The notes beneath the pieces are model-generated. The model did no database searches, was not told the origin of the DNA, and saw only the letters and a program-made list of their open reading frames with translations. Positions 1 through 56,925 of a DNA stretch of 64,000 bases are shown piece by piece (position 1 is the stretch's first letter; every line of letters starts with the position of its first letter). A program made the translations under genes and the position numbers. Origin of the DNA: Squalus acanthias (lineage: Eukaryota); contig CM059432.1 in the NCBI GenBank assembly GCA_030390025.1, positions 26,042,001 through 26,106,000 on the forward strand, in the 5' to 3' direction.

Positions 1-566
1 GGATGTCTTCCATGGATAGACTGACCTCTTTTGTGGAACTTGAATCACAGCACACTGATCAGTCTCTGCATGCCCTGATGACAGCCATGCAAACTATGGA
101 TGACAACATTGCTGCCACTGTAAACAGGATGACAGATACATAAGCTGTGGACTTACAAGGTGTCATTGATCTGCTCGAAGCTGCTCTCCCACAGAGAGGT
201 AGGAGTGATGTGCCATTGGCCCAGGAGCGGGATGATGGCGAAATGGGACATGGAAGTGGAACACCACTCAAAAGGTTTCTGCGTCATACCCGTAGCCTCC
301 CAGCCCCCTCAACCAGTAACCAACACGCTGGCTCCTCTCCTGATGGCCGAGTCTGCCCCTGCACAGGTAAAGCAGTCTTTGGCAGGACCTTCACGGGTTC
401 AAAAACTCAAAAGGTCGTCGGCCGCATACATCTCAGAAATCAAAGCGGCCTGCCTCTACCTCTGCTGGAGCCACAGGGGTTGCACCACATAGGAGCGCTA
501 GGGAAAGAAAAAGAAAAGTTATGTAGTTCACCAAGGGTAGGGGTGTTTATGAAAATGTTGTGTTAG
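1..566 (+). mobile_element. Probable 3' end of the Harbinger second (Myb/SANT) gene, convergent with the transposase at 759-1695
   Basis: Low-complexity S/P/A-rich ORF ending tail-to-tail with the transposase. The layout and composition resemble the C-terminal exons at 38000-39023 and 63500-64000. Confidence 0.5.
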
Positions 567-758
567 TAAAATTTACACCACTATTTCGTGTTCACCATTC
601 TTGCATGGCGAGTGCCAACTGGTGCTGCTTGGTGATGAATGTGAAGACATGAATTGACTGAGACCAGTTGGTGCATGTGCAGTGGATGGGTGATTGGTTA
701 CAGGACTGCTTTGTGTCAGTGGAGGGGATGTGATAGTTACTTGGTCCCGTGTAAGTGG

Positions 759-1695
759 CTAACTGAAGCTTTGGTCTATTAGGGCATCCCAAGCAGCAAA
801 GTGATCAGCTGCACTGGCGTTGGGAGCCCCATCATCACCTTCCTCCTCCTCGCCACTGGAATCCTCATCAGATGTCGTGCTGAGCAGCTTGTTCCTCCTG
901 CATATCAACATCCTGCAGAACGTAGAACACCTCGCTGGGGAGTACTGAAGGGCGTCTCCAGACCAGTCCAGGCACCTGAAGGACATCTTGAGCATGCCAA
1001 CGGCTTGCTCGGTGATACATTTGGTTGTCATATAGCTCACGTTGTAGCACTCTTGGTGTTTATTAGTAGGGCTCCTCAGAGGTTTGAAGGGGGTATCCTT
1101 GGTCACCTAGCAGCCACCCCTTAAGGCTGGTTCCAGGTATGAACATGTTGGGAATGTTGGACTGCCCCAGTATGAAAGCATCATGGAAGTTCCCAGGAAA
1201 TCTGGCGCAGACCTGCATGAACCTTTTCTTGTGGATGCACACCAGCTGAACATTGATGGAATGAGATCCTTTACGGTTGACGAATGCTCCTGGTTGATTG
1301 GCAGTGCTCGGATTGCCACGTGTGTGTAATTGATGGCACCCTGCACTTGTTGGAAGCCAGCTAGAGATGTGCATCGGAGTGCCTGCTCATTCTGGCTATT
1401 ATCATCACAGTGAAAGTTTACATACCTCCCAGCCCTGACAAACAATCCATCAGTCACCTGTTTAATGCATTTATGTGCAGCTGACGGAGAACCCTCGCTC
1501 TGTCTCTGGTAGCAACCTTGAAGGAACCAGTGGCAAAAAAAATTGAGGGTGGTGGTGACTTTCACAGCCACTGGTAATGCGTGGCCACCAGGTAGCAGGT
1601 CTTCTTCTAGGATGCTGTGACCACCTGACATGACAGCTTTCAGAAGCAATGCTCTTCCGAGAGGTCAAGGAAGCCGAGCCTCTGTCTATAGACAC
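759..1695 (-). mobile_element. Degenerate PIF/Harbinger DDE transposase (HARBI1-like)
   Basis: Frameshifted fragments: VYRQRLGFLDLSEEHC, HALPVAVKVTTTLNFF, QGAINYTHVAIRA, FVNRKGSHSINVQLVC, ARFPGNFHDAFIL, GWLLGDQGYPL, EQAVGMLKMSFRCLD. These are the typical Harbinger transposase motifs. Confidence 0.9.
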
Positions 1696-2500
1696 TGTTA
1701 GGTGGGTAGTGGATTGGAAGAAATAATAGTCTGTTACGGGTTCCCTAGCTCAGCAGTTTGCCTAAGTTGATGACACAGAAGGATTCCAGTCATGTCAGAA
1801 AAAGAGTTGTACAGAGAGCTGAATTACAAGGTCATAACACAAAAAAAGGCCTTCAAATGGGCATAGCTAGGCCTGATAAGGGATGCAGCAAGAAGACGTA
1901 GGATAAACAAGCTGTCTACGAGAGGGCAACAAGACATTTAGAACAGAGATAAGGAGGAAAATGACCTCATGAGGCTGGGAGGGGGCTGTCATAGGTACCC
2001 TCTCCTTTGTAATTGGACAATGGGATGGGTAAAAATGATTGACACCAGGTATCCACCAGCCCATCGAAATAAGGTGTAAAAACGGGCGACCGAGAGAGGA
2101 AAACAAGCAGTTAGGGGAGAAGGCTTCTCCGAGGTGGATGCATGCTGGCTACGGCCTAATACCTTGGTCAAGTTTAGCCTCTGAGGTGGATCGATGCTGG
2201 CTATGGCCTAACACCTCCAACAGCTCGAGGGATGACCAACGGAAGTGACCGCTGCCGCAGACTGCAGGAATCCACCCAATCCGGGACCACTGTACAGCCT
2301 CACCGTCCGTCCATCCGGTCGTTTTGTTCCGTTCCAGAGCCGTAGATCACTCCATCTGTCACGGGGTGTATGTCTACTGTATCTATTTCAATCACATGTA
2401 GTATCTGATTATGCTTAAACTGTAGCTCTTTAATAAAATGCCTTACAAACTCCTAAGACCCTTTGGGTAATCTGTGTGCGACCTGTGATCCAAATTCTTA
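1696..2500 (+). mobile_element. LTR-like segment abutting the transposase remnant
   Basis: Starts TGTTA exactly where transposase homology stops, is non-coding, and has a TATA-like TGTAAAAA (~2075) and AATAAA (~2432). No clean CA end or TSD was found. Confidence 0.3.
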
Positions 2501-3105
2501 AGAGTGCTGGGTGAGCGTGTGATAGGAGTGCTGTCAGATGCAGTTGAGAGAATTGCAGAGATGAAGAGCTGTACTCTCCCTTGTCTAGTGAGGTAATCAA
2601 ACTTTTCTTTTTACATTGACCCCAGGTCCTGGGGGCAATGCTGCTGACACTGTCCCGGTCAGCCACCTCTGTCCAGACCTGCTTAATAGTGGCCTTGGGA
2701 TGCTCCTGCAGATTCTGGCGAACAGTACCTCCCCTCCTTGCCATGTCTTCCTCCACCAGGAACTCCAAGATTGAAACACAAAAACAGGGGGCAGCCCTGC
2801 GATTCATTTGAGCTGGCATAATATTCAGTACAATTGTTCACGCAAAAATGAAAGCAAGGAATGCAACTTTGTTTTAAGAGGAGCATCCCCGCTTTAAATA
2901 AGCATTGGGAGGCTTGCCGGAAATTGCGTGACATATTGGTGGGCTGCACGATTCCTGAAACGAGCGGGAGGGCAGCCTGTTAATCATATGGAAAGGAGGC
3001 CTGGGTGTTAAATTCAATTTATCGTTTAAATTTCTGCCCTCCACCCAATCACAGACCTTTCCCTTTTCTTCTTTCCCTCGGCTCTGCACTGCTTAAAATT
3101 TCCAA
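2500..3105 (-). mobile_element. Harbinger fragment: first exon of a Myb/SANT-like DNA-binding gene
   Basis: ATG at 2807: MNRRAAPCF...LEFLVEE...KQVWTEVADR...PRTWGQCKKK, a Myb/SANT-like (trihelix) pattern also seen at 39679-39918 and 59459-59686. Confidence 0.75.
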
Positions 3106-3107
3106 CA

Positions 3108-3250
3108 TCTTCCAGTTCTAATGAAAGATTATCGTTCTGAAACATTAATTCTTGTTTCTCTCTCCACAGGTGCTGCCTGACCTACTGAGTGTTTCCAGCC
3201 TTTTCTGTTTGTATTTCAGATTTGCAGCATCTGCAGCATTTTACTTTTGT
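3108..3250 (+). mobile_element. Penelope-like element terminal fragment with decayed hammerhead motif
   Basis: ccagttCTAATGA...GAAAcatt...ctctccacaggtgctgcctgacctactgag...ttcagatttgcagcatctgcagc. Same family as 53383-53490; the hammerhead core has CTGA changed to CTAA. Confidence 0.65.
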
Positions 3251-3559
3251 TATCTATCTAGTTCATTTTGAAATTATGTTAAGGGCCTAGAAATTCAGGA
3301 GCGCCATTTCTGCCTTTGCCATCTGCTGCTCTACTTTTAAAAATCTATTCAAAACCCTTCCCTTTAACCACACCTCACCCTCACTCCCACCTAACAGCAA
3401 GATCCGAGAACCCTCAACCATCAGTTTCCAAGGCAGTGCATGGCACAGGAAAAGATAGCAGGCTGCCATTTCCTGGAAGTTGTTAGGACTAACCATCCTA
3501 GGGCTGGACTATTTCGATAATTCACAAAACATACTTAGCAGAAGAGTGAGGGCAAGTCA

Positions 3560-5579: not shown

Positions 5580-5856
5580 TAAGGGAACTGCTGCCGGGCA
5601 GCCGATTGCACGGGACTCACCCGACGTTATGTTAGTTTTACGCCGCGTCACCAATGATGTAATCGGGCTGTGACTTTTAAATGTTAACCAGGCCCCCGCC
5701 TGCCTTTTGCAGGAGCCTCGTCAATGGTCTAATTTGGAGTAATAATTTAAATGGCTGGGAAGGCGGTGGGTTGAAGACGGGAGGTAGAACTTTTAAATTT
5801 TATCCCTTCCCACATATCATTCCAGCTGGGTTGGGGGTGGTTGAAATCGGGGCCTT
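5580..5856. mobile_element. Harbinger-type MITE fragment
   Basis: GC-rich non-coding segment ending in gaaatcggggcc, resembling the GGSC..(A/T)-rich termini of other TIR elements in the window. Confidence 0.35.
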
Positions 5857-5911
5857 GAACTCTCTCCTCGCCAGCCAAGCTCTCTGATCTCCTAAACTCC
5901 AAGTGAATCAA

Positions 5912-8900
5912 GGGAACAGTAGCATAGTGGTTATGTTACTGGACAAGCAATCCAGAGGCCTGGACTAATGATCTGAAGACACGAGTTCAAATCCCCCCAC
6001 GGATGGGGAATTTAAATTCAGTCAATTAAATAAATCTCAAATAAAAAAATCTAGTAATACTAATGGTGACCATGGAACTATCAGAAAAAACGATCTGGTT
6101 CACTAATGGGAATCTGCCATCGTACCTGGTCTGGCCTATATGTGACTCCAGACCCACAGTAATGTAGTTGACTCTTAGCTGCCCTCTGAAATGGCCCAGC
6201 AAGCCACTCAGTTGTAAAAAACCGCTACGAAAAACAGTAAGAATAAAACCGGACGGACTATCCGGCATCAACCTTGGCACCGGCTATGGACATAACAATG
6301 GCACACCCAGCCCAGTTGACCCTGCAAAGTCCTCCTCACCAACATCTGGGGACTTGTGCCAAATTTGGGAGAGCTGTCTAGTCACAGACTAGTCAAGCAC
6401 CAGCCTGACATAGTCATACTCACAGAATCATACCTTTCAGCCAATGTCCTAAACTCCTCCATCACCGTCCCTGGGTATGTCCTGTCCCACATACCTCGGG
6501 TGGCGGCACAGTGGTATACAGTCGGGAAGGAGTGGCCCTGGGAGTCCTCAACATTGACTCCGGACCCCATGAAGTCTCATGGCTTCAGGTCAAGCATGGG
6601 CAAGGAAACCTCCTGCTTAATACCACCTACCGCCCTCCCTCAGCTGATGAATGAATACTCCTCCATGTTGAACACCACTTGGAAGAAGCACTGAGAGTAG
6701 CAAGGGCACAGAATGTAGTCTGGGTGGGGGACTTCAATGTTGATCACCAAGAGTGGCTCGGTAGCACCACTACTGACCGAGCTGGCCAAGTCCTGAAGGA
6801 CATAGCTGCCAGTCTGGGCCTGCGACAGGTGGTGAGAGAAACAACACGAGGGGAAAAACCTACTTGATCTCGTCCTCACCAATCTACCTGTCACAGGTGC
6901 ATCTGTCCATGACAGCATTGGTAGCAGTGACCACCGCATAGTAATTGTGGAGACGAAGTCCCGTCTTCACACTGAGGACACCCTCCATTGTGTTGTGTGG
7001 CACTACCACCGTGTTAAATGGGATAGATTCAGAACAGATCTAGCAGCTCAAAACTGGGCATCCATGAGGCGCTGTGGGCCATCAGCAGCAGCAGAATTGT
7101 ATTCCACAAGAATCTGTAACCTCATGACCCAGCATATCCCTCACTCTACCATTACCATCAAGCCAGGGGACCAACCCTGGTTCAATAGGAGTGTACAGGA
7201 GCAGCGCCAGTGTACCTAAAAATGCGGTGCCAACCTGGGGAAGCTGCAACACAGGACTACATGCATGCTAAAAAGTGGAAACAGCATGCTATAGACAGAG
7301 CTAAGCGATCCCACAATCAACGGATCAGATCAAAGCTCTGCAGTCCTGCCACATCCAGTTGTGAATGGTGGTGGACCATTAAACAACTAATGGGAGGAGG
7401 AGGCTCCATGAATATCCCCATCCTCAATGATGGTGGAGCCCAGCACGAGTGCAAAAGACAAAGCTGAAGCATTTGAAACCATCTTCAGCCAGAAGTGCCG
7501 AGTGGATGATCCATGTCGGCCTCCTCCTGAGGTCCCCACCACCACCGAAGCCAGTCTTCAGCCAATTCGATTCACTCCACTCCGATATCAAGAAATAGCT
7601 GAGCGCACTGGATACAGCAAAGGCTGTGGGCCCTGACAACATCCCAGCTGTCGTGCTGAAGACTTGTGCTCCATAACTAGCCAAGCTGTTCCAGTACACC
7701 GACAATATGGAAAACTGTCCAGGTATTTCCTGACCACAAATAGTAGGACAAATCCAATCCGGCCAATTACCGCCCCATCAGTCTACTCTCAATCATCGGC
7801 AAAGTGATGGAAGGTGTTGTTGAGAGTGCTATCAAGCAGCACTTACTCCCCAATAACCTGCTCACTGATGCCCAGTTTGGGTTCCTCCAGGACCACTCAG
7901 CTCCAGACCTCATTACAGCCTTGGTCCAAACATGGACAAAAGAGCTGAATTCCAGAGGTGAGGTGAGATGAGAATGACTGCCCTTGACATCAAGGCAGCA
8001 TTTGACCGAGTGTGGCATCAAGGAGCTCGAGTAAAACTGAAGCCAATGGGAATCGGGGGGAAAACGCTCCACTGGCTGGAGTCATACCTAGCACAAAGGA
8101 AGATGGTTGTGGTGGTTGGAGGTCAATCATCAAAGCCCCAGGACATCGCTGCAGGAATTCCTAAGGGCACTGTCCTAGGTCCAACTGCTTTCAGCTGCTT
8201 CATCAATGACCTTCCCTCCATCATAAGGTCAGAAGTGGAGATGCACGCTGATGACTGCATGTGTTCAGTGCCATTCGCAACTCCACAGATAATATAGCAG
8301 TCCATGCCCGCATGCAGCAAGACCTGGATGACATTCAGGCTTGGGTTGATAAGTGGCAGGTAACATTCGCGCCACACAAGTGTCAGGCAATGACCATCTC
8401 CAACAAGCGAGCGTCTAACCACCGCCCCTTGACATTCAACGGCATTACCAACCCCGAATCCCCCACCATCAATATCCTGGGGGGTCACTATTGACCAAAA
8501 ACATAACTGGACCAGCCACAAAAATACTGTGGCAACAAGAGCAGGTCAGAGGCTGGGTATTCTGCGGCGAGTGTCTCACCTTCTGACTCCCCAAAGCCTT
8601 TCCACCATCTACAAGGTACAAGTCAGGAGTGTGATGGAATACTCTCCACTTGCCTGGATGAGTGCAGCTCCAACAACATTCAAGGAGCTCGACACCATCC
8701 AAGACAAAGCAGCCTGCTTGATTGGCGCCCCATCCACCCCCTTAAACATTCACTCCCTCCACCACTGGCGTACCGTGGCTGCAGTGTGTACCATCTACAA
8801 AATGCACTGCAGCAACTCGCCAAAGCTTCTTCGGCACCACCTCCCAAACCCACAACCTCTACCACCTAGAAGGACAAGGGCAGCAGGCGCATGGGAACAC

Positions 8901-9145
8901 CACCATCTCCAAGTTCCCCTCCAAGTCACACACCATCCTGACTTGGAAGTATATCGCCGTTCCTTCATCGTCGCTTGGTCAAAATCCTGGAACTCCCACC
9001 CTAACAGCACTGTGGGAGTACCTTCACTACACAGACTGCAGCAGTTCAAGGCGGCGGCTCACCATCACCTTCTCAAGGGCAACTAGGGATGGGCAATAAA
9101 TGCTGGCCTTGCCAGCGATGCCCACATCCCATGAACAAATAAAAA
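5912..9145 (+). mobile_element. Near full-length, single-ORF CR1-Zenon-like LINE (APE endonuclease + RT) with tRNA-derived 5' head
   Basis: EN motifs KVLLTNIWGL, PDIVILTES, VGDFN, LDLVLTN, SDH. RT motifs NYRPISLLS, DIKAAFDRVWH, G.PKGTVLGP, HADD, YKVQVRSVMEY, HSLHHWRTVAA. Several frameshifts and stops. The 3' end is gatgggcaataaatgctggccttgccagcgatgcccacatccc plus an A-rich tail. Possible AATCAA TSD at 5906-5911 and 9144-9149. The clade label comes from recalled motifs. Confidence 0.9.
5920..5994 (+). promoter_or_regulatory. tRNA-type internal RNA Pol III promoter (A box + B box) at the LINE 5' end
   Basis: A box TAGCATAGTGG (5920-5930) fits TRGCNNARYGG. B box GTTCAAATCC (5985-5994) fits GWTCRANNC. 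The spacer is lengthened by an imperfect duplication (ctggacaagcaatccagag / ctggactaatgatctgaag). Confidence 0.75.
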
Positions 9146-9323
9146 TCAAAGTGCATCTATTAATATTTCTATAACCCTCAAACCTCTTTATTGACACTGA
9201 TCTTAAAGTACTTCAAGTTTCACGACCCAACTTAACTATTTTTTCTTGTTGTTGGTTCCATATGACTATCTGTAAACTTTCTTGAGGCTTTTGAATTTTG
9301 TAATTATATCCTAAGATATACAA

Positions 9324-9957
9324 GACTAGAAATTCAGCCGTAACATGGCGGGCAGAACGCACCCGCTGAGAATGAGCTGGAAGTGAGTTGTCCGCCATAT
9401 TGGTAAAGGGCAAAATAAAAACCCAGCATGCAGTGTCCTGAAACAGGTGTTTTAACCTTTGCATATGCCGGCTACATTCAGGAAATCCAGGTCTACATGC
9501 GCCTAACAGGCAGTCCTAAGAGACCGCTGTGGGCCGCGACCAAGGTAAGATTCTAAAATATATTTATGGAATGTGGAGTCGGGTGGAGTTCAAAGAATGT
9601 TGACCGCTCCCCTCCGATCAGTGCTGCTACCTCCCCACCCCCGCCGATCGTCACTGCTACCTCCCCACCTCACCCAGATTGTCACTGCTACCTCCCCCCA
9701 CCCCCCCCCACAATCGCCCAACCACCCTTACCCCTCCCCTTTCTTGATCCCATCCCTTCTCACTTACTTGAGGGCCAGCAGTAGACCGACCTTCAATCGC
9801 GCTTCGTCTGCAAGCTGCACGTTGCTCTCAGCAGCTGGATGTAAATGTGGCCCGCGGTGCAATAGCGGGGGCTCCTTGGGCCCACCTGTCAGGTGAAAAG
9901 GACTGCTCCCTGCACCCCACGCTTGCTCAGAAAGCGGCACACCTAATTTCTGGGCCA
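9324..9957. mobile_element. Non-autonomous TIR element (Harbinger-type MITE)
   Basis: Termini gactagaaatt and aatttctgggcc are imperfect inverted repeats, with a C-rich low-complexity interior. Confidence 0.5.
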
Positions 9958-12039: not shown

Positions 12040-14450
12040 CATGTTGCCCCTTGGCGACATCATCTGAAAACACAGCGTTAGTTTCCAATTCTACGCTGAC
12101 GACACCCAGCTCTACCTCACTACTTCTTCTCTCGACCCCTCCACGGTGTCTAAATTGTCAGACTGCTTGTCCGACATAGAGTTCTGGATGAGCAAACATT
12201 TTCTCTAATTAAATATTGGGAAAACCGAAGCCATTGTTTTCGGTCCCCGCCACAAACTCCGTTCCCTAGCCACTGACTCCATCTCTCTCCCTAACATCTG
12301 TCTGAGACTGAACCACACTGTTCGCAACCTTGGTGTCATATCTGACAGTGAAATGAGCTTCCGACCACATATCCGCAGCACCTCCGTAACATTGCCCGTC
12401 CCCTGGCTTGATGGTAATGGTAGAGGGAAGGATATGCTGGACCATGACTTTACAGATTGTGGTGGAACACAATTCTGCTGCTGTTGATGTCCCACAGCGC
12501 CTAATGGATGCCCAGTTTTGAGCTGCTAGATCTGTTCTGAATCACCCGTCTCCGCCCCTGCCTATGCTCATCTGCTGCTGAAACCCTCATCCATGCCTTT
12601 GTTACCTCTAGATTTGACTATTCCAACGCACTCCTGGCTGGCCTCCCACATTCCACCCTACGTAAACTTGAGGCCATCCAAAGCTCAGCTGCCCGTGTCC
12701 TAACTCGCACCAAATCCCGTTCGCCCATCATCTTTTTCTTCTTAGGCAGTCCCTCGGAACCGAAGATGACTTGCCTCCACATTAAAAATGAGTTCTCAGG
12801 TGACTAATGAGTCCAATGCGGGACCTACAGTCTCTGTCACAGGTGGGGCAGACGGTGGTTGAAGGTGCGGGTGGGTGGGGTGCTTGGGTTGACGTGCGTT
12901 CCTTCCGCTGTTTGCGCTTGGCTTCCGCTTGCTCCCGGCGAAGAGACACGAGGTATTCGGCGCCTTCCCGGATGCCTCTCCTCCACTTTGTACGGTCTTG
13001 GGCCAGGGATGCCCAGGTGTCGGTGGGGATGTTGCACTTTTTCAAGGAGGCTTTGAGGGTGTCCTTGAAGCCTTTCCTCTGCCCACCTGGGGCTCTCTTG
13101 CCGTGTCGGAGCTCCGAGTAGAGCGCTTGTTTTGGGAGTCTCGTATTAGGCATGTGGACGATTTGACCCATCCATCGGAGCTGATCGAGTGTGGTCAAAA
13201 CTTCAATGCTGGGGATGTTGGCCTGAGCGAGAACACTGACGTTGGTGCGCCTATCCTGCCAATGGATTTGCAGGATCTTGTGGAGGCAGCGTTGGTGGTA
13301 CCTCTCCAGTGCTTTGAGGTGCCTGCTGTACATGGTCCATGTCTCTGAGGCATACAGCAGGGCGGGTATTACTACTGCTCTGTAGACCATGAGCTTGGTG
13401 CTGGGTTTGAGGTCCTGGTCTTCAAACACTCTCTTCCTCAGGCGACCGAAGGCTGCACTGGCACACTGAAGGCGGTGGTGGACTTTGTCATCGACGTCTG
13501 CCCTTGTTGACAGTAGGCTCCCGAGGTATGGAAAGTGGTCCACGTTGTCCAAGGCCTTGTCATGGATTTTGAGAATCGGGGGGCAGTACTGTGTGGCGGG
13601 GGCAGGTTGGTAGAGGACCTTTGTCTTACGGATGTTTAGTGTAAGGCCCATGTTCTCGTACACTTCTGTGAAGGTGTTAACGATGGTTTGGAGTTCGACC
13701 TCCGAGTGTGCGCAGACGCAAGCGTCGTCTGCATACTGTAATTCGACGACAGAGGAAGGGCCGTCCTTGGATCTGGACTGGAGGTGACGGAGGTTGAACA
13801 GTTTCCAGTTTGTTCTGTAAATTAGCTCCACTCCAGCAGGGAGCTTACTGAGGGTGAGATGGAGCATTGCCGCAAGGAAGATCGAGAAGAGCGTTGGTGT
13901 GATGACACAACCTTGCTTGACCCCGGTCCGTACATGAATTGGGTCTGTGGTGGAACCATTGGTCAGGATCAGACCAAGTCCCGTTCACCCATCACCCCTG
14001 TGCTCGCTGACCTACATTGGCTCCCGGTTAAGCAACGCCTCGATTTCAAAATTCTCATCCTTGTTTTCAAATCCCTCCATGGCCTCGCCCCTTCCTATCT
14101 CTGTAATCTCCTTCAACCCCACAATCCCCCCCGAGATATCTGCGCTCCTCTAATTCTGCCCTCTTGAGGATCCCTGATTATAATCGCTCAACCTTTGGTG
14201 GCCGTGCCTTCTGTTCCCTAGGCCCTAAGCTCTGGAATTTCCTGCGTAAACCTGTCCGCCTCGCTACCTCTCTTTCTTCCTTTAAGACGCTCCTTAAAAC
14301 CTACCTCTTTGACCAAGCTTTTGGTCACCTGCCCTAATTTATCCTTATGTGGATCGGTGTCAAATATTCTTTTGTCTTAAAATACTATTGTGTAGTGCCT
14401 TGGGACGTTTTACTACGTTAAAGGCGTTATATAAATACAAGTTGTTGTTA
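12040..14450 (+). mobile_element. L2 LINE 3' portion, interrupted by a Zenon-like fragment (~12395-12540) and an RTE (12731-13972)
   Basis: PLGDII...YADDTQLYL, LNIGKTE, SRFDYSNALLAGLP, PITPVLADLHWLPVKQRLDFKILILVFKSLHGLAPSYL. The L2 3' end is gccttgggacgttttactacgttaaaggcgttatataaatacaagttgttg. Confidence 0.9.
12731..13972 (-). mobile_element. 5'-truncated RTE (BovB-like clade) LINE with open RT C-terminal frame
   Basis: GVKQGCVITPTLFSIFL, ELQYADD, GLTLNIRKTKVL, FPYLGS, QLRWMGQIVHM..RLPK and C-terminal CPTCDRDCRSRIGLISHLRTH. The tail is (AAG)-rich. It is flanked by a 22-bp duplication (12709-12730 / 13973-13994). Confidence 0.92.
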
Positions 14451-22115: not shown

Positions 22116-22544
22116 ACATAGAAACATAGAATCTAGGAGCAGGAGTAGGCCATTCGGCCCGTCGAGCCTGCTCCGCCATTCAATACGATCATGGCTGATC
22201 ATCCAAATCCAGTACCCTGTCCCTGCTTTAATCCCCACAGTACACATATCCCACCCTACCCCCGTAACCCCACGTATTTAATTCCCCCTAACATATCCCA
22301 TCCTATCCCCATAACCCCACATATTTAATCTCCCCTAACACTAAGGGTCAATTTATCATAGCCAAATCAACCTAACCCACACATTTTTGGACTGTGGGAG
22401 GAAACCGGAGCACCCGGAGGAAACCCACGCAGACACGGGGAGAATGTGCAAACTCCACACAGACAGTCACCCGAGGTCAGATTCGAACCCGGGTCTCTGG
22501 CGCTGTGAGGCACCAGTGCTAACCACTATGCCACCGTGTTGCCC
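22116..22544 (-). mobile_element. tRNA-derived SINE, HE1/V-SINE type with CR1-derived tail
   Basis: Head gggcaacacggTGGCATAGTGG...GGTTCGAATC; central tgtgtggagtttgcacattctccccgtgtctgcgtgggtttcctccgggtgctccggtttcctccc; tail shared with CR1 (gatcagccatgatc...ggccgaatggcctactcctgctcc...(tttctatg)n). Confidence 0.9.
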
Positions 22545-23241: not shown

Positions 23242-23672
23242 ACATAGAAACATAGAAACATAGAATCTAGGAGCAGGAGTAGGCCATTCGGCCCGTCGAG
23301 CCTGCTCCACCATTCAATACGATCATGGCTGATCATCCAAATCCAGTACCCCGTCCCTGCTTTAATCCCCACAGTACACATATCCCACCCTACCCCCGTA
23401 ACCCCACATATTTAATTCCCTCTAACATATCCCATCCTATCCCCATAACCCCACATATTTAATCCCCCCCTAACACTAAGGGTCAATTTATCATAGCCAA
23501 ATCAACCTAACCCGCACATTTTTGGACTGTGGGAGGAAACCGGAGCACCCGGAGGAAACCCACGCAGACACGGGGAGAATGTGCAAACTCCACACAGACA
23601 GTCACCCGAGGTCAGATTCGAACCCGGGTCTCTGGCGCTGTGAGGCACCAGTGCTAACCACTATGCCACCGT
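23242..23672 (-). mobile_element. Second, nearly identical copy of the HE1/V-SINE-type SINE
   Basis: Only a handful of substitutions versus 22116-22544, including the same internal ~47-bp duplication. Confidence 0.9.
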
Positions 23673-25189: not shown

Positions 25190-25617
25190 TTTTAAATTGT
25201 TGTTCCAGGGAGGTGAGCGTCGCTGGCAAGGCCAGCATTTATTGCCCATCCCTAATTGCCCTTGAGAAGGTGGTGGTGAGCCACCTTCTTGAACCGCTGC
25301 AGTCCATGTGTTAATACTTCTTTGTGACAATTTGGTACAACTGAGTGGCTTGCTAGGCCATTCAGAGGGCAGTTAAGAGTCAACCACATTGCTGTGGGTC
25401 TGGAGTCACATATAGGCCAGACCAGGTAAGGACAGTAGATTTCCTTCCCTAAAGGACATTAGTGAACCTGATGGGTTTTTACGACAATCCGGTAGTTTTA
25501 TGGTCACCATTACTGATACTAGCTTTTTATTCCAGATTTATTTAATTAACTGAATTTAAATTCCCCAGCTGCCGTGGTGGGATTTGAACTCACGTCTCTG
25601 GATCATTAGTCCAGGCC
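25190..25617 (-). mobile_element. SINE made of the 5' head and 3' end of the CR1-Zenon-like LINE (internal-deletion derivative)
   Basis: 25617 down to ~25335 matches LINE ~5957-6215 (B box GAGTTCAAATCC ... gccactcagttgta). ~25310 down to 25200 matches LINE ~9028-9135 (gactgcagc.gttcaag...aagggcaa.tagggatgggcaataaatgctggcc). Confidence 0.88.
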
Positions 25618-29417: not shown

Positions 29418-32400
29418 CTAGAGGAATGGTGCAAGGGGGAGGGATTCAAATTCCTGGGGCATTGGAACCGGTTCTGGGGGAGGTGGGACCAGTACAAACC
29501 AGACGGTCTACACCTGGGCAGGGCCGGGACCGATCTCCTAGGGGGAGTGTTTGCTAGTAGTCTGGGCGAGGGTTTAAACTAAAATTGCAGGGGGTTGGGA
29601 ACCTGAGCAGGGAGATAGAGGAAAGGGAAACAAGGATAAAAGCAAAAGATAGGAAGGAGAAAAACAAAAGTGGCAGTCAGAGAAAACAACGGTTTAAATC
29701 AAACATGGCCACAGTAAATACTAATTCTAATAGGTCTAAGAGCGTTAAAAAAACAAGCCTGAAGGCTTTGTGTCTTAATGCAAGGAACATTCGGAACAAG
29801 GTGGATGAATTAGCTGCGCAAATAGAGGTAAACGAATATGATTTGATTGGGATTACCGAAACATGGCTCCAGGGTCGCCAAGGCTGGGAACTCAACATCC
29901 AGGGGTACTCAATATTCAGGAAAGATAGGCAAAAAGGAAAGGGAGGTGGGGCAGCATTGCTGGTTAAAGAGGGGATTAACACAATTGAAAGGAAGAATAT
30001 TAGCTCTGATGATGTGAAATCTGTATGGGTTGAACTGAGAAATAACAAGGGGCAGAAAACGTTAGTGGGAGTGATATATAGACCTCCAAACATTAATGCG
30101 GAGGTTGGGGATAGCATTAAAAGGGAAATTAGAGAAGCGTGCAATAAGGGCACAGCAGTCATCATGGGTGACTTTAATCTACATATAGATTGGGCTAACC
30201 AAATTAGTAACAATACTATGGAGGAGGAATTCCTGGAGTGTTGATGGGATGGTTTCCTGAACCAATATGCCGAGGAACCAACCAGAGATCAGGCCATCTT
30301 AGACTGGGTATTATGCAATGAGAAAGGATTAATTAGCAATCTTGTTGTGCGAGGCCCCTTGGGTCGGAGCGATCATAATATGATCGAATTCTTCATTAGG
30401 ATGAAGAGTGAAGTAGTTGACTCAGAGACTAGGGTCCTGAATTTAAATAAAGGAAACTACGATGGTATGAGGTGCGAGTTGGGTAGGATTGATTGGGGAA
30501 TGTCACTCAAAGGGTTGACGGTGGATAGGCAATGGCAAACATTCAAAGACCGCATGGACGAACTACAGAATTTGTTCATCCCAGTTTGGCATAAGAATAA
30601 AACAAAAAGGGTCACTCAACCGTGGCTAACAAGGGAAATTAGGGATAGCATAAGATCTAAGGAGAGGGCATATAAATTGGCCATAAAAAGCAGTAACCCT
30701 GAGGATTGGGAGCAGTTTAAGATTCAACAAAGGAGGACAAAGGGATTAATTAAGAAGGGGGAAATAGAATACAAGAGTAAGCTTGCAGGGAACATAAAAA
30801 CTGACTGTAAAAGCTTTTATAGATATGTGAAGCGAAAAAGATTAGTGAAATCAAGCATAGGTCCCTTGCAGTCAGAATCAGGGGAACTTATAATGGGGAA
30901 CAAAGAAATGTCAGACCAATTAAATACATACTTTGGTTCTGTCTTCACAAAGGAGGACACAAATAACCTCCCAGAGATGTTGGGGAACATAGGGTCTGAT
31001 GAAAGGGAGGAACTGAAAGAATCAGTATTTGTAGGGAAATGGTGTTAGGGAAATTGAAGGGATTGAAGGCCGATAAATCCCCAGGGCCTGATAATCTACA
31101 TCCTAGGGTACTTAAGGAAGTGGCCCTAGAAATAGTAGATGCATTGCTGATCATCTTCCAACATTCGATGGAATTTGGAACAGTACCCATGGATTGGAGG
31201 GTAGCTAATGTTACCACACTATTCAAAAAGGGTGGTAGAGAGAAAACGGGGAATTACAGACCGGTAAGCCTGACATCGGTAGTGGGGAAAATGCAAGAGT
31301 CCATTATAAAAGATGTAATAGCTGAGCACTTGGAAAACAGTGACAGGATCGGACAAAGTCAACATGGATTTATAAAAGGTAAATCATGCTTGACTAATCT
31401 ACTGGAATTTTTTGAGGATGTAACTGGTAAAATAGATAATGGAGAACCAGTGGATGTGGTGTATTTGGACTTCCAAAAGGCTTTTGATAAGGTCCCGCTT
31501 AAGAGATTAGCGTGTAAAGTTAAGGCACATGGGATTGAGGGCAAGGTATTGACTTGGATAGAGAACTGGTTGGCAGACAGAAAGCAAAGAGTTGGAATAA
31601 ACGGGTCTTTTTCCGAGTGGCAGGCAGTGACTAGTGGGGTACCGCAGGGATGGGTCCTTGGACCCCAGCTATTCACAATATATATTAATGATCTAGACAA
31701 GGGAACTAGATGTAATATCTCCAAGTTTGCAGACGACACAAAACTGGGTGGGCGTGTACGCTGCGAGGAGGATGCCGAGAAACTCCAGGATGATTTGGAC
31801 AGGTTGTGTGATTGGGCAGAAGCATGGCAGATGCAATATAACGTGGATAAATGCGAGGTTATCCACTTTGGTGTCAAAAACAGAAAGGCAGATTATCTGA
31901 ATGGCAGTAGATTGGGAGAAGGGGAAGTGCAACGAGACCTGGGTGTCCTTGTGCACCAGTCGCTGAAGGTAAGCATGCAGGTGCAGCAGGCGGTTAAGAA
32001 GGCAAATGGTATGTTGGCCTTCATATCGAGAGGGTTTGAGTACAGGAACAAGGATGTCTTGCTGCAGTTGTACAGGGCCTTGGTGAGACCACACCTTGAG
32101 TACTGTGTGCAGTTTTGGTCGCCTTATCTGAGGAAGGATGTTCTTGCCATGGAAGGATATCAGCGAAGATTCACAAGGCTGATACCTGGGATGGCAGGAA
32201 TGACGTATGGAGAGAGATTGGGTCGATTGGGCTTATACTCGCTGGAGTTTAGAAGAATGAGAGGGGATCTCATTGAAACTTATAAAATTCTGACAGGACA
32301 GGACAAACTAGATGCAGGAAGGATGTTCCCGATGGTCGGGGAGTCCAGAACCAGGGGTCACAGTCTAAGGATAAGGGGTAAGCCATTTAGGACAGAAATG

Positions 32401-32655
32401 AGGAGGAATTTCTTCACCCAGAGAGTGGTGAACCTGTAGAATTCTCTGCCACAGAAGGCAGTAGAGGCCAATTCATTAAATAGATTCAAGAATAGTTGGA
32501 TATATTTCTTAAGGCTAAAGGGATCAAGGGATATGGAGAGAAAGCAGGGACAGGGTACTGAATTTGGATGATCAGCCATGATCGCATTGAATGGCGGAGC
32601 AGGCTAGAGGGGCCGAATGGCCTACTCCTGTTCCTACCTTCTATGATTCTATGAA
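29418..32655 (+). mobile_element. CR1 LINE: end of ORF1 plus essentially complete ORF2 (EN + RT) with few disablements
   Basis: ORF1 end DGLHL; EN motifs LNARNI, ITETWL, YRPP, MGDFN, SDHN; RT motifs NYRPVSLTS, DFQKAFDKV, GVPQG.VLGP, KFADD. Frameshifts at ~30241 and ~31020 and a stop at 32437. Tail ttctatgattctatg. Confidence 0.96.
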
Positions 32656-35220: not shown

Positions 35221-35244
35221 AGGGCCGAGTTATCTGAAGCCTCT

Positions 35245-35760
35245 GCCACAGGTTGGAATACCACCATGGTAATTTATGAATTTGCATTCAGTTTACAATA
35301 CAATAAGTCTGAAATAAAAAAGCTGGTATCAGTAAAAGCGACTATGAAGCTGTCAGATTGTCATAAAAACCCAACTGATTCACTAATGTCCTTTCGTGAA
35401 GGAAACCTGCCATCCTGGCCGATACATAACTCCAGTCCCACACCAACATGGTTGACTTTTAACTGCCCTCTGAAGTGGCTTGTAAAGCCACTCAGTTGTA
35501 TCAAACTTCTACAAAGATTAAGAATAAAACCAGATGGACCCCTCGGCTGCGAGCTAAGCATCGAATTCGGACACGACAAAGACGCACCCAGCCCAGACAA
35601 GCCTGAAAAATCTTCCTCACTAACATCTGGGGACTGGTGTGAAAGTTGTAAGAGCTCTCCCAAGACTAGTCAAGCAACAGCGTGACACAGTCATACTCCA
35701 GAATCATACCCATCAGTCAATATCCCAGACTCTTCCATCATCATCATCCCTGGGTAGGAC
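35245..35760 (+). mobile_element. 5' fragment of a second CR1-Zenon-like LINE (decayed B box, 5' UTR and start of endonuclease)
   Basis: ggttggaataccaccatgg...gccactcagttgta...aagaataaaaccagatggacc...ctcactaacatctggggactggtg...agactagtcaagcaacagc...agtcatactc.agaatcatacc, collinear with ~5984-6480. Confidence 0.85.
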
Positions 35761-36144: not shown

Positions 36145-37280
36145 TGTAAAGGGGAAAGTATTGACGTGGATAGAGAACTGGCTGTCAGATAGAAAACAGA
36201 GAGTTGGAATAAACGGCTCATTTTCTGAATAGCAGGCAGTAACAAGTGGGGTACCACAGGGATCTGTCCTGGGTCCCCAGCTGTTCACAATTTACATTAA
36301 TGACCTGGATCAGGGAGTCGGATGCAGCATTTCCAAATTTGCAGACGACACTAAACTAGGAGGGGGGGTGGGCTCAGAGGAGGAGACCAGGAAGCTCCAG
36401 AGCGATTTGGACAGACTGGGTGATTGGGCGGATAAACGGCAGATGCATTATAATGTGGACAAGTGCGAAGTTATCCACCTTGGGTGCAGGAACGGGAGGG
36501 CAAATTATTATTTAAATGGCAATAAATTGGGAGAGGGGGAAGTACAGAGAGACCTGGGTGTTCTTGTACACCAGTCACTGAAGGCGAGCATGCAGGTGCA
36601 ACAGGCGGTCAAGAAGGCAAACGGTATGCTGGCCTTCATAGCAAAAGGGTTGGAATACAGGAACAGGGATACCTTGCTGCAGCTGTACAGGGCACTGGTG
36701 GGACCACACCTCGAGTACTGTGTACAGTTTTGGTCGCCTCATCTGAGGAAAGATGTTCTTGCCATGGAGGGGGTGCAGCGGCGATTCACCAGGCTGATAC
36801 CAGGAATGGCGGGATTGACCTATGAGGAGAGACTATGTAGTTTAGGGATGTACACACTGGAGTTTAGAAGATTGAGAGGGGACCTCATAGAAGTGTATAA
36901 AATTCTGACAGGTCTAGACAGACTAGATGCAGAAGGAATGTTTCCCTTGGCGGGTGAGAACAGAACTAGAGGACATAATTTAAGGATAAGGGCTAAACCA
37001 TTTAGGACAGAAATGAGGGGGAATTTCTTCACTCAGAGGGTGGTGAACCTGTGGAACTCATTGCCACAGAGGGCAGTGTACGCCAGCTCATTAAATATAT
37101 TTAAGAGGGAATTAGATATATTTCTACAGGCAAAAGGGGTTAAGGGTTACGGAGAGAAGGCGGGGACGGGATACTGAATTGGAGGATCAGCCATGATCTC
37201 ATTAAATGGCGGAGCAGGCTCGAAGGGCCGGATGGCCTACTCCTGCTCCTATCTTCTATGTATCTATGTATCTATGTATG
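36145..37280 (+). mobile_element. 5'-truncated CR1 nested in the Harbinger element
   Basis: [15 protein letters not shown], open frame to 37177, then a CR1 tail with (tatctatg)n. Confidence 0.95.
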
Positions 37281-40847: not shown

Positions 40848-43800
40848 AAGGGTCAAGGACGTCTCGGAGCGGCTACAGACATTTTGGAGGGGGAGGGCGA
40901 ACAGCCAGCTGTCGTGGTGCACATAGGCACCAACGATATAGGTAAAAAAGGGGATGAGGTCCTAAAAGCAGAATATAGGGAGTTAGGAGGTAAATTAAAA
41001 AATAGGACCTCAAAAGGTAGTAATCTCAGGATTGCTACCAGTGCCACGTGCTAGTCAGAGTAGAAATAGGAGGATATTTCAAATGAATACGTGGCTAGAG
41101 GAATGGTGCAAGGGGGAGGGATTCAAATTCCTGGGACATTGGAACCGGTTCTGGGGGAGGTGGGACCAGTACAAACCGGACGGTCTGCACCTGGGCAGGG
41201 CCGGGACCGCTGTCCTAGGGGGAGTGTTTGCTAGTGCTGTTGGGGAGGATTTAAACTAATGTGGCAGGGGGTTGGGAACCTGAGCAGGGAGACAGAGGAA
41301 AGCATGTCAGGAAGGGACAGAAGGTATGGAGTAAAAGGTAAAGTGTTAAATAAGGAAAAAGCAGGAAGTAAGTGTCGCAAAACACATTTGAAAGTTCTTT
41401 ATCTGAATGCACGTAGCATTCGTAACAAAATTGACGAGTTAACGGCACAAATAACTATGTATGGGTATGATCTTGTGGCCATTACAGAAACATGGCTGCA
41501 GGGTGACAATGTCTGGGAATTAAATATGCCAGGGTATTTAACAATCAGGAAGGACAGGCAGGAAGGAAGGGGAGGGGGGGTGGCTATGTTAATAAAGGAA
41601 GGAATCACTGTAATACAGAGAAATTATATTGGGTCAAAAGATCAGAAAAAATGAAACAGTTTGGGCAGAGATTAGGAATAATAAGGGGAAAAAAACACTG
41701 GTGGGCGTAGTACATAGGCTTCCTAATAGTTGCAACTCTGTTGGAAGAAGTATTAATCAGGAAATAGTTGGGGCATGTAATAAGGGAACAGCTATAATTA
41801 TGGGGGATTTTAACTATCATATTAACTGGACAAATCAAATTGGGCAGGGCAGCCTTGAGGAAGAGTTTATTGAGTGTCTTAGGGATGGATTTCTTGAGCA
41901 GTATGTAACTGATCCTACAAGGGGGCAAGCAACCTTGGACCTGGTACTGTGTAATGAGTCTGGATTAATTAATAATGTCCTAGTTAAGGATCCCCTTGGA
42001 ATGAGTGACCATAACATGGTTGAATTCCATATCCAATTAGAGGGTGAGAAGGTTGGTTCTCAAACAAGCATACTGAGCTTGAATAAAGGAGACTATGATG
42101 GCATGAGAGCTGAATTGATTAAAGTGGACTGGGAAAATAGATTAAAGTGTAAGACGGTACATGAGCAGTGGTGTTCATTCAAGGAGTTATTTTACAACTT
42201 TCAAAATAAATATATTCCACTGAGGAAAAAAGGGTGTAAAAGAAATGACAGCCATCCATGGCTAAGTAAAGAAATTAAAGAAAGTATCCAACTAAAAACA
42301 AGGACATATAAGGTAGCCAAAGTTAGTGGGTGGATAGAAGATTGGGAAGTCTTCAAAAGACAACAAAAAGTAACTAAAGGATTGATTAAGAAAGGGAAAA
42401 TAGACTATGAAAATAAATTAGCAAAAAATATAAAAACAGATAGCAAGAGTTTCTATAGTTATATAAAAAGAAAAAGGGTGGTTAAGGCAAACGTAGGTCC
42501 CTTAGGGGATGAGACCGGGAAATTAATGGTGGGAAACATGGAGATGGCAAAAATGCTGAACAAATATTTTGTTTCAGTCTTTACGGTAGAGGACACTAAG
42601 AATATCCCAACACTGGACAAACAGAGGGCTCTCGTGGGGGAGGAGCTGAATACGATTAAAATTACTAAGGAATTGGTACTCAGTAAAATAATGGGACTCA
42701 AGGTGGATAAATCCCCTGGACCTGATGGCTTACATCCTAGGGTCTTGAGGGAAGTGGCAGTAGGAATTGTGGATGCTTTGGTAATAATTTTCCAAAACTC
42801 CCTGAACTCAGCAAAGGTCCCGGCAGATTGGAAAACTGCTAATGTAACACCCTTATTTAAAAAGGGTTGTAGGCAGAAGGCTGGAAATTATAGACCAGTT
42901 AGCCTAACATCTGTGGTGGGTAAAATTTGGAGTCTATTATTAAGGAGACAGTAACGGAACATTTAGATAAACATAATTTAATAGGACAAAGTCAGCATGG
43001 CTTTATGAAGGGGTTATGAAGGGGAAGTCATGTCTGACAAATTTGCTCGAGTTCTTTGAGGACATAACGTACAGGGTGGATAAAGGGGAACCAGTGGATG
43101 TAGTGTATTTAGACTTCCAGAAGGCATTCGACAAGGTACCACATAAAAGATTATTACTCAAGATAAAAAATCACTGGATTGGGGGTAATATTCTGGCATG
43201 GGTGGAGGATTGGTTATCTAACAGGAAGCAGAGAGTTGGGATAAATGGTTCATTCTCGGACTGGCAACCAGTAGCCAGTGGTGTTCTGCAGGGGTCGGTG
43301 CTGGGTCCCCAACTCTTTACAATCTATATTAACGATTTGGAGGAGGGGACCGAGTGTAACATATCAAAGTTTGCAGATGATACAAAGATGGGAGGGAAAG
43401 TAGAGAGTGAGGAGGACATAAAAAACCTACAAGGGGATATAGACAGGCTGGGTGAGTGGGCAGAGATTTGGCAGATGCAATACAATATTGGAAAATGTGA
43501 GGTTATGCACTTTGGCAGGAAAAATCAGAGAGCAAGTTATTATCTTAATGGCGAGAAACTGGAAAGTACTGCAGTACAAAGGGATCTGGGGGTCTTGGTG
43601 CAAGAAAATCAAAAAGTTAGTATGCAGGTGCAGCAGGTGATCAAGAAAGCCAATGGAATGTTGGCTTTTATTGCTAGGGGGATAGAATATAAAAACAGGG
43701 AGGTATTGCTGCAGTTGTATAGGGTATTGGTGAGACCGCACCTGGAGTACTGCATACAGTTTTGGTGTCCATACTTAAGAAAAGACATACTTGCTCTCGA

Positions 43801-44410
43801 GGCAGTACAAAGAAGGTTCACTCGGTTAATTCCGGGGATGAGGGGGTGGACATACGAGGAGAGGTTGAGTAGATTGGGACTCTACTCATTGGAGTTCAGA
43901 AGAATGAGAGGCGATCTTATTGAAACATATAAGATTGTGAAGGGGCTTGATCGGGTGGACACGGTGAGGATGTTCCCAATGATGGGTGAAACTAGAACTA
44001 GGGGACATAATCTTAGAATAAGGGGCTCCTCTTTCAAAACTGAGACGAGGAGAAACATTTTCACTCAGAGGGTAGTGGGTCTGTGGAATTTGCTACCCCA
44101 GGAAGCTGTGGAAGCTACTTCATTAAATAAATTTAAAACAGAAATAGACCGTTTCCTAGAAGTAAAGGGAATCAGGGGTTACGGGGAGCGGGCTGGAAAT
44201 TGGACATGAGTTTGAGTTCGGATCGGTCAAGGCCCTGTGGGTGGCGGAGCGGGCCCAGGGGCCGAGTGGCCTGGTCCTGCTCCTACTTCTTGTGTTCTTT
44301 AGAGTTGAGGTTGGATCAGATCAGCCATGATCTCATTGAATGGCGGAGCAGGCTCGAGGGGCCGATTGGTCGACTCCTGCTCCTATTTCTTATGTTCTGA
44401 TGTTCTTATG
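40848..44410 (+). mobile_element. CR1 LINE with part of ORF1 (SGNH/GDSL esterase-like), full ORF2 and doubled 3' UTR
   Basis: ORF1 VVVHIGTNDIG...DGLHL. ORF2 EN and RT motifs run through to the stop at 44209. Frameshifts include an 11-nt tandem duplication ttatgaagggg (43003-43024). Two consecutive tails, 44210-44300 and 44301-44410. Confidence 0.96.
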
Positions 44411-55409: not shown

Positions 55410-56925
55410 CATTTTTTGGATATGGGCATTGCTATCAAGGCCAGCATTTATGGCTCATCCTAAGTTACCCTTGAGAAGGTGGTGGTAAGCCGCCTTCTTG
55501 AAACGCTGCACTTCAGCGGTGCAGTGAAGGTGCTGCCACAGCGCTGTTAGGTAGGGAGTTCCAGGATTTTGAACCAGTGATGATAAAGGAATAGCGATAT
55601 ATGTCCAAGTCAGGATGATGCATCCTGCAGATAGTACACACTGCAGAGCCACGGTGAGCCAGTGGTGGAGGGAGTGGATGTCTAAGGTGGTGAACGGGCT
55701 GCCGATCAACACACGACTTTGTCCTGTATGGTGTCGAGCTTCTTGAGTGTTGCTGCAGCTGCACCTATCTAGGCAAGTGGAGAGTATTCCATCACACTCC
55801 TGACTTGTGCCTTGAAGGTGGTGGAGAGGCTTTGAGAAGTCAGGAGGTGAGCCACTCGCCACAGAATACCCACCTTCTGACCTGCCCTAGTAGCTATGGC
55901 ATTTATGTAGCTGGTCTAATTAAGTTTCTGCTCAATGGTGACCCCCCAGGATCTCGATGGTGGGGAAATTCAGCATTGGTAATGCCACTGAATGTCAAGG
56001 GGAGGTGGTTAGACTCTCTTGTTAGAGATGGTCATTGCCTGACATTTGCGTGGTGTGAATGTTATTTGCCACTTATCAGCCCAAGCCTGGAGGTTGTCTA
56101 GGTCTTTCTGCATGCGGGAATGGACTGCTTCATTATTGGAGGAATTGTGAATGGAACTGAACACTCTGCAATGATCTGCGAACACTTCTGATCTTACGAT
56201 GGATGGAAGGTCATTGATAAAGCAGTTGAAGATAGTTGGGCCTAGGATGCTGCCCTGAGGAACTCCTGCAGCAATATCCTGGGGCTGAGATAATAGGCCT
56301 CCAATAACCACAGCAACTTTCCTTTGTGCTAGGTAGGTCTCCAGCCACTGGAAAGTTTTCCCCTGATCCCCATTGACTTCAATTTTACTAGTGCTCCTTG
56401 CTGTCACACTCGGCCAAATGCTGCCTTGATGTCATGGGCAGTCACTTTCACCTCACCTCTGGAATTCAGCTCTTTTGTCTATGTTTGAACCAAGGCTGTA
56501 ATGAGGTCTGGAGCAGAGTGGTCCTGCATCGGTGAGCAGCTTATTAGTAAGTGCTGTTTGATAGCACTGTCAACGTTTCCTTCCATCACTTTGATTTTGA
56601 TTGAGAGTAGGGTGATATAATGATAATTGGCCAGGTTGGATTTATCCTGGTTTGTGTGTACAGGACATACCTGGGCAATTTTCCACATTGCCGGGTAAAT
56701 GCCAGTGATATAACTGTACTGGAACACCTTTGCTAAAGGCACGATTAGTTCTGAAGCATAGGTCTTCAGCACTACAGCTGGGATATTGTCAGGACCCCTG
56801 GCCTTTGCTGTGTGCAGTGCGCGCGGCCGTTTCTTGATATCACGTGGAGTGAATCGAATTAACTGAAGACTGGCATCTGTAATGGTGGGGACCTCAAAAG
56901 GAGGCAGAGAATGATCATCCACTCA
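55410..56925 (-). mobile_element. 5'-truncated CR1-Zenon-like LINE with internal deletions
   Basis: GPDNIPAVVLKT, GVPQGSILGPTIF, WADKWQITF, HSLHH; 3' end as at 9085-9130. Confidence 0.92.

Follow-up and report, generated by a model that had tools for sequence, protein, structure and literature searches.

We report here on a long interspersed nuclear element (LINE) of Squalus acanthias that begins with a head of the type found on short interspersed nuclear elements (SINEs). The 64,000 nucleotides (nt) that were analysed, which we call the window, are positions 26,042,001 to 26,106,000 of contig CM059432.1 (assembly GCA_030390025.1), and the element occupies positions 5912-9145 of the window. 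The copy is dead, and the LINE family to which it belongs is abundant and ~3.3 kb long. At the level of sequence, the sister copies in the 3.7-Gb genome establish that this family was a real, unitary and formerly autonomous LINE that had a tRNA-type head as its 5' end and an RNA that would have begun there. LINEs and SINEs are textbook opposites: LINEs are long, encode protein and are transcribed by RNA polymerase II (Pol II), whereas SINEs are short, do not encode protein and have RNA polymerase III (Pol III) transcribe them from a small-RNA head. Our best reading, which we hold tentatively, is that this LINE was also transcribed by Pol III.

Anatomy of the window copy

The window copy consists of the following parts.

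5912-6006, plus strand: tRNA-derived head, with an A box at 5920-5930 and a B box at 5985-5994; the family-wide 5' terminus
6007-6235, plus strand: leader common to the LINE and the SINE form, with AATAAA/ATTAAA words and out-of-frame ATGs (alignment of the consensus, the window copy, the SINE and old copies)
6236-9085, plus strand: decayed endonuclease and reverse transcriptase (RT) frame, specific to the LINE and absent from the SINE (open reading frame pieces, Pfam and tblastn)
9029-9145, plus strand: 3' tail, ending ...GAACAAATAAAAA at 9145, common to the SINE (match to SINE 25200-25311); the family 3' edge

The frame of this copy is broken into at least six pieces of 81-217 codons, and relatives align by tblastn to 6499-9071. 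The initial annotation of this DNA, which was made from its letters, had given the copy a single open reading frame (ORF); a single frame is found only in the family consensus, the start codon of which (consensus nt 274) falls near the end of the leader and the stop codon of which maps into the 3' tail region of the window copy. The leader had been put at ~400 nt, and this length has to be corrected: with the first in-frame ATG of the consensus at nt 274, the leader is ~273 nt long, and it is the endonuclease domain that starts near nt 400. Relative to the family, the leader of the window copy has deletions, as its alignment with the consensus and the sister copies indicates. There is no ORF1 in the window copy or in any family copy examined, which agrees with what had been annotated.

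The family 5' end

When the genome was searched with 5912-6500, there were 11,699 first-look candidates, and the 40 that were scored all covered nearly the whole query. This query spans the junction between the head and the frame, and so it favours copies that bear the junction. When 29 other loci were aligned with the window from 5400 on, homology started exactly at 5912 in 15 of them and no more than 4 nt from 5912 in 24, and at no locus did it begin farther than 7 nt upstream. Each of the 29 loci continues into the frame, as the choice of query favours. Among 20 fetched copies, 15 are collinear with the window copy from 5912 to 9126-9145 (3192-3297 nt), and the other five have deletions, insertions or truncations.

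Copies were also sampled by their RT region, which removes the selection bias for the 5' end, and the best 20 of 100 scored matches were fetched. Seven of these copies begin at element nt 1, 1, 49, 49, 134, 141 and 203, and the remaining 13 begin at nt 657, 701, 867, 877/1132, 921, 1019, 1085, 1255, 1351, 1552, 1616, 1630 and 1635. No sequence beyond element nt 1 is found in any of the 20. The junction between head and frame is present in seven of the 20; the other 13 are 5'-truncated and do not have the SINE 5' half upstream; only L055, with some fragments upstream, may be an exception. At the 3' side, 19 of the 20 alignments reach consensus nt 3250-3297, and that of L052 stops at nt 3063. 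Such 5' truncation is what one ordinarily sees in a LINE. The same starting nucleotide at many loci, the lack of anything homologous upstream and the ordinary 5' truncations together imply that the whole unit, including the head, was copied from RNA. The initial annotation had taken the element to start with the head, and had named a majority of headless or longer copies among the full-length ones as an observation that would count against its reading; in the 29 loci and the 20 RT-sampled copies, most full-length copies are neither headless nor extended farther 5'.

Two full-length copies, L033 and L048, begin AGACACAG/AGACACAT rather than GGGAACGG in their first 8 nt. Perhaps the 5' end varies here, or the bases are untemplated or come from the flank.

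The family is abundant. An 18-mer from the ORF start has 7193 exact matches in the genome, and an 18-mer with the B box has 6571. Among the first places listed on contig C1, the ORF-start word lies 258-488 nt downstream of 14 of 84 B-box matches, with both on one strand. Target-site duplications are absent from 12 of 16 full-length copies. The longest one has 6 bp (AATCAA, at the window copy), and duplications of at least 6 bp flank 2 of the 16 copies versus 4% of mismatched flank pairs, a result that is uninformative.

The consensus and its coding capacity

A majority consensus was made from 23 copies, each of which is 92-97% identical to it. The consensus is 3308 nt long and consists of the tRNA-derived head, a leader of ~180 nt, a 1014-codon frame for an apurinic/apyrimidinic (AP)-type endonuclease and an RT, and a tail of ~60 nt. 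The single 1014-codon frame is open from nt 205 to a TAG at nt 3247, and six out-of-frame ATGs lie upstream of its first in-frame ATG at nt 274. AATAAA words are present at nt 121, 132, 3258 and 3301, of which the last two belong to the family tail; at a distance of 117-137 nt from its 5' end, the element has two AATAAA words and one ATTAAA. The A tails of the copies vary from about 5 to 12 nt.

The source elements were coding, because one long frame returns when the broken copies are merged into a consensus. Open pieces of sister copies match Pfam Exo_endo_phos_2/Exo_endo_phos (Exo_endo_phos_2 at 2.2e-12 and 8.7e-13) and RVT_1 (3e-36 and 8.8e-32). No copy was found intact; in the 100 scored RT matches, the longest open frame has 840 codons and belongs to a match with stop codons. 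Judging from these sequences, the family is probably old and extinct in this genome.

The protein relatives of the family are 34-42% identical to it, have 900-1000 residues and are found on 3-4-kb contigs that have no informative names, and homology searches for a clade returned only unnamed or generically named relatives. The single ORF and the 3.3-kb size presumably fit RTE or a single-ORF L2, and we take the TGAA-like 3' end to recall L2. A segment of the Heptranchias perlo (shark) protein model P0020, annotated as aldo-keto reductase family 1 member B1-like, is 75% identical to the LINE protein; a LINE copy was probably taken into this gene model by mistake.

The tRNA-type head

The A box (TAGCATAGTGG) and the B box (GTTCAAATCC) that had been annotated at the start of the element were found at 5920 and 5985, 54 nt apart; they are at nt 9 and nt 74 of the consensus. 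With the A box 8 nt from the family 5' end, this arrangement and spacing fit a Pol III type-2 unit, in which transcription starts ~8-12 nt before the A box. The pattern of an A box, 25-60 nt and a B box occurs once in the window when both strands are counted, and in none of 300 shuffled windows. Upstream of the frame, the pattern is present in 11 of 23 decayed family copies versus 0 of the 27 related LINEs that come from metagenome contigs. That the head is there, and where it is, overwhelmingly exceeds chance.

In the sister copy L036, which is better kept, the head is matched by the Rfam tRNA model with 25.7 bits (E 0.0013 in a 171-nt search), which is below the gathering score of 29. This alignment takes in model positions 7-64; the D, anticodon and T arms are covered, the variable region has an insert of 22 nt, and the acceptor stem is not matched. 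An Rfam scan of 5700-9400 gave no tRNA match at E up to 1 and only a chance match to a long non-coding RNA. ARAGORN with default settings found no tRNA in the window or in L036; with relaxed settings it reported a poor tRNA-Thr-like cloverleaf, which starts at nt 5 and not at nt 1, in the consensus and in 11 of the 23 copies. The relaxed calls are not relied on because the same setting fires on unrelated upstream regions of relatives. As judged from its sequence, the head is not a foldable tRNA but a promoter module of tRNA origin, as is typical of SINEs. SINE heads of this tRNA-derived kind drive Pol III. A scan for bacterial promoters and terminators gave the same counts as shuffled sequence and is irrelevant to this element.

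The SINE form and other copies in the window

The window contains a SINE form of the family, other remnants of the LINE and several copies of CR1-like LINEs.

25200-25617, minus strand: 5'-truncated SINE copy, in which element 5957-6216 is joined to 9029-9138 (blastn, sequence and alignment)
55418-56927, minus strand: 5'-truncated copy of the LINE, from RT to tail (blastn 79-82%), with one sense run of four T (T4)
12398-12543, minus strand: 146-nt LINE fragment from the endonuclease region, 92% identical to 7026-7171
35230-35760, plus strand: old copy of a diverged lineage, with a degenerate head, leader and start of the endonuclease frame, 71% identical to the window copy and 78% to the consensus
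29711-32650, 36146-37270, 41391-44400, 44761-47080 and 57149-59119, plus strand: CR1-like LINE copies, which serve as controls for T4 counts

By sequence, the SINE at 25200-25617 is an internal-deletion form of the LINE family that has kept the head, the leader and the tail. It is equivalent to the LINE minus nt ~330-3190, and so the start codon and the first codons are retained; its tail is 88% identical to element 9029-9138. A SINE2 is expected to have a tRNA head, a tail common with a LINE, and a short, non-coding sequence. The full element has the first two of these features, and it is neither short nor non-coding (3.3 kb, coding); among the window copies only the deletion form at 25200-25617 is short and non-coding.

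Contigs from sequence runs of four organisms, the RNA status of which is only guessed, cover the whole element, and the family edge at 9145 is seen in all four runs and that at 5912 in one. Contigs of the four runs also have SINE-type joints, from 6212-6216 to 9044-9091. Because these contigs cover the whole element and carry the joints, both the LINE and the SINE form exist beyond this genome.

A tandem duplication of ~420 nt is also present in the window, at 22116-22537 and 23250-23672 (98-100% identical, 1134 nt apart). It contains a CR1-tail-like repeat that is found again at 26577, 32541, 37176 and 44319.

T runs

The window copy has no TTTT on its sense strand, as the initial annotation had stated. 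A script counted 0 T4 versus 19 A4, 14 C4 and 8 G4, and T makes up 20.7% of the copy, within the 20-22% that had been estimated. The number of runs expected by chance had been given as roughly 4-6; mononucleotide shuffles of the window copy give a mean of 4.7 TTTT and a probability of none, P(0), of 0.0075. The nearest T runs are a TTTTTT at 9239 downstream, the very place (~9239) that had been named for the first of them, and the last upstream one at 5798. The truncated copy at 55418-56927 has the one sense T4 ascribed to it, which is the AAAA at 56896 on the plus strand. The CR1 LINEs of the window had been called rich in TTTT, and the five CR1-like copies do have 2-14 sense T4 each, near the expectation from base composition, with TT observed/expected ratios of 1.08-1.17.

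The family as a whole has the same tendency. The consensus has no T4, where its base composition predicts ~3.9, and 7 TTT versus 32 AAA, 40 CCC and 28 GGG. Thirty-nine copies (107 kb) contain 15 sense T4 (0.14 per kb) at 14 sites, 13 of which are private to one copy. In the older lineage described below, L151 has two T4 and the window copy at 35230-35760 has one, at sites that differ. The only T4 common to two copies is at consensus nt 1619 in L039 and L042 (ATCTTC to ATTTTC), which would be either the mark of a small sublineage or a parallel C-to-T change.

TT is depleted in the consensus (observed/expected 0.72) versus AA (0.98). When the family frame is placed beside 29 related LINE frames from metagenome contigs, it is the lowest of the 30 in T content (0.193; the others 0.214-0.357), in TT observed/expected (0.71; the others 0.86-1.35) and in T4 observed/expected (0; the others 0.62-2.47). 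Third codon positions generally prefer C over T (0.64 of C/T-ending codons), and Phe is rare (18 codons). Such a T-poor and TT-depleted composition is suggestive of pressure against terminators, and is not proof of it.

An older lineage with a variant B box

Some headed copies have a variant B box. In the old copy of the window this box (at 35252) reads GTTGGAATAC, and the variant is also seen in L151 (318-1724), in L156, in L157 and in one locus that was later duplicated. An 18-mer with the variant box has 10 exact matches in the genome versus 0 for its reversed control. The ten are the window's own copy, six that represent one segmentally duplicated locus, the family members L156 and L157, and one chance match. 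The copy at 35230-35760 matches L151 at 80%, while each of them matches the consensus at 77-78%, which implies that the two share derived changes. Genome searches with these two sequences mostly return the main family.

The duplicated locus consists of six near-identical copies, L158-L163, on contigs C16, C2339 and C3711. They share the same upstream flank, and therefore they are one locus that was spread by segmental duplication. In each of them the head and leader stop near nt 325 and adjoin a CR1-like RT fragment that encodes ...LDYQKAFDKVPHK...

Which polymerase transcribed the family

Of the readings that we have considered, transcription of the headed LINE by Pol III is the best, and we would put it only a little short of an even chance. 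TFIIIC would bind the A and B boxes, and Pol III would start at element nt 1, as it does on a SINE. With no sense T4 in the source elements, Pol III would be able to continue over 3.3 kb until it meets a T run in the flank. As messenger, the uncapped transcript would be translated from the AUG at nt 274, which six out-of-frame AUGs precede, and the same transcript would serve as the template, recognised by the encoded protein through the 3' tail. Most likely, the head would have reached the LINE, or the SINE would have arisen from the LINE, via deletion or template switching within the common leader. The complete proposal, namely an autonomous, coding retrotransposon that was transcribed by Pol III, was T4-free over 3.3 kb and used one uncapped RNA as both messenger and template, is possible, and we regard it with more reserve than Pol III transcription as such.

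Several points weigh against Pol III. We know of no natural Pol III transcript of ~3.3 kb, and Pol III RNAs are poor messengers. The family looks extinct, with copies that are 92-97% identical to the consensus and a longest open frame of 840 codons. The missing T runs are also less striking under stricter controls: dinucleotide shuffles of the consensus give a mean of 1.55 T4 and P(0)=0.19, codon permutation gives a mean of 1.83 and P(0)=0.14, and synonymous shuffling gives a mean of 1.9 and P(0)=0.11. Once dinucleotides or codons are held fixed, the absence of TTTT is at best marginal and does not reach significance. The initial annotation had proposed that the family was selected against terminators. 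Composition largely explains the depletion, and with P(0) of 0.11-0.19 such selection is something that we infer; what stands in its favour is that the composition is itself the poorest in T and in TT among the 30 frames and among the LINEs in the window. A further point is the older headed lineage, the B box of which, GTTGRAATACC, is non-canonical at two positions, where it has G and A in place of two residues that are known as invariant in tRNA. To judge from these copies, the headed LINE has multiplied, at least modestly, without a canonical B box. The older lineage may have had another promoter or been mobilised in trans, or its B box may tolerate both changes.

The main rival to Pol III is that the same architecture was transcribed by Pol II, with a promoter inside the head or leader and a start at nt 1 or close to it, which we consider doubtful but a serious contender. 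The head would then be the relic of a LINE-to-SINE RNA template switch in the common leader and would serve Pol III in the SINE only, and TTTT would be missing as a side effect of a coding sequence that is rich in C and poor in T. The composition-preserving nulls just described, the preference for C over T in third positions and the rarity of Phe are all consistent with this, as are the non-canonical B box of the older lineage, the AATAAA words at the 3' end and the A tails of varying length. The studied autonomous LINEs are, moreover, all taken as Pol II units in the accessible text of Kojima (2018, PMC5786205). However, Pol II would have to start exactly at the first nucleotide of a tRNA-type head, a start that has to be postulated, whereas a type-2 Pol III promoter sets it by itself. 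The extreme position of the family among the 30 related frames in T content, TT depletion and T4 also counts against this rival, and the AATAAA/ATTAAA words as early as 117-137 nt, together with the six out-of-frame ATGs, are awkward for a capped, scanned messenger.

Two other explanations are far less probable. The LINE might have had no promoter of its own and been made from host or read-through RNA, with the tRNA-like head as an RNase P-type cleavage signal that set the 5' end, much as self-cleaving ribozymes do at the 5' ends of some LINE clades. The precise 5' ends of the copies would suit such processing, and R2, RTE and other clades do have elements for 5' processing, according to the accessible part of PMC5786205. 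Nevertheless, we consider it very unlikely, since a SINE-type module that is not a foldable tRNA speaks against an RNase P-type role: the Rfam match is limited to model positions 7-64 without an acceptor stem, ARAGORN finds nothing by default, and its relaxed fold is poor, starts at nt 5 and comes from an unspecific setting. A complete tRNA-like fold, in turn, would invite a 3' cleavage that removes the head. It is hardly credible that the window copy is not one element, be it a SINE that lies by chance before a 5'-truncated LINE or a LINE that inserts site-specifically into SINEs. The SINE does share both ends with the LINE, but the copies contradict this explanation: the same junction is found in all 29 loci picked by their 5' part, where selection favours it, and in 7 of the 20 picked by RT, and the consensus frame is open from inside the common leader. 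Site-specific insertion into SINEs is ruled out by the 13 truncated copies that have no SINE 5' half upstream, L055 being the possible exception.

Relation to known elements

No LINE with a tRNA-derived head, and no LINE transcribed by Pol III, was found described in the open literature; subscription papers, Repbase and Dfam were outside the search. The architecture is real, and it is possible that it has been described earlier. HE1 is reportedly a tRNA-headed SINE of elasmobranchs with a 3' tail common to the LINE HER1, of which only the 3' part is said to have been described. An excerpt of PMC3747384 tabulates the HE1/HER1 pair for sharks and rays. The family described here resembles HE1/HER1 as reported, in that an elasmobranch tRNA-headed SINE shares its tail with a LINE.

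The idea of a LINE transcribed by Pol III is itself not new. Kurose et al. are said to have proposed in 1995 that the human L1 promoter depends on Pol III. L1 differs from the present family in having no tRNA-type head, and it is now taken as a Pol II unit. U6/L1-type chimeras are known as one-off dead insertions, whereas the chimera described here is a replicating unit with thousands of copies. The likeness is that they too have a Pol III-type RNA sequence 5' of LINE sequence, and the accessible text of a recent preprint attributes U6/L1 and other small-RNA/LINE chimeras to template switching (bioRxiv 10.1101/2025.02.02.635956). By analogy, template switching of this kind is a likely route by which the head was gained.

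Kojima (2018, PMC5786205) describes bipartite SINEs in which a tRNA head is followed by a body and a tail supplied by a partner LINE, the body by its 5' part and the tail by its 3' part, for example Bov-tA/Bov-B and CoeSINE4/RTE. The SINE in the window is like this model, as it consists of a tRNA-type head, a LINE 5' leader and a LINE 3' tail. What is different is that the autonomous LINE carries the head as well, a case that the accessible text of PMC5786205 does not consider. In that text, autonomous and bipartite LINEs are treated as Pol II units, SINEs cannot encode protein, and LINE 5' contributions to SINEs are reported only from the RTE and Vingi clades. The same text cites uncapped, ribozyme-processed RNA that is used as messenger in some LINE clades. 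Short, internally deleted derivatives of LINEs are also on record in the available parts of PMC5786205 and PMC6740152, including RIME/Ingi, NARTc/L1Tc and Persaeus of CR1 Zenon. There, as here, the non-autonomous form keeps both ends; unlike here, these pairs lack a small-RNA head.

Conclusions

A very successful LINE carries a SINE-type head as its own 5' end. Thousands of its copies reach the ORF start, and the family is present in sequence runs of several organisms. If Pol III did transcribe it, this would be the first natural Pol III messenger of ~3.3-kb size, and the polymerase boundary between LINEs and SINEs would be crossable. The birth of a SINE would then be a simple deletion inside a Pol III-driven LINE, and a SINE and its partner LINE would be one transcription unit with a long and a short form. 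The origin of a SINE body would also become concrete, namely the LINE's own leader and first codons. Even if the polymerase was Pol II, the family would indicate that a SINE head can be acquired by a LINE and retained during a long amplification, and the idea that SINE bodies derive from LINE 5' parts would extend to a case in which the first codons are common too.

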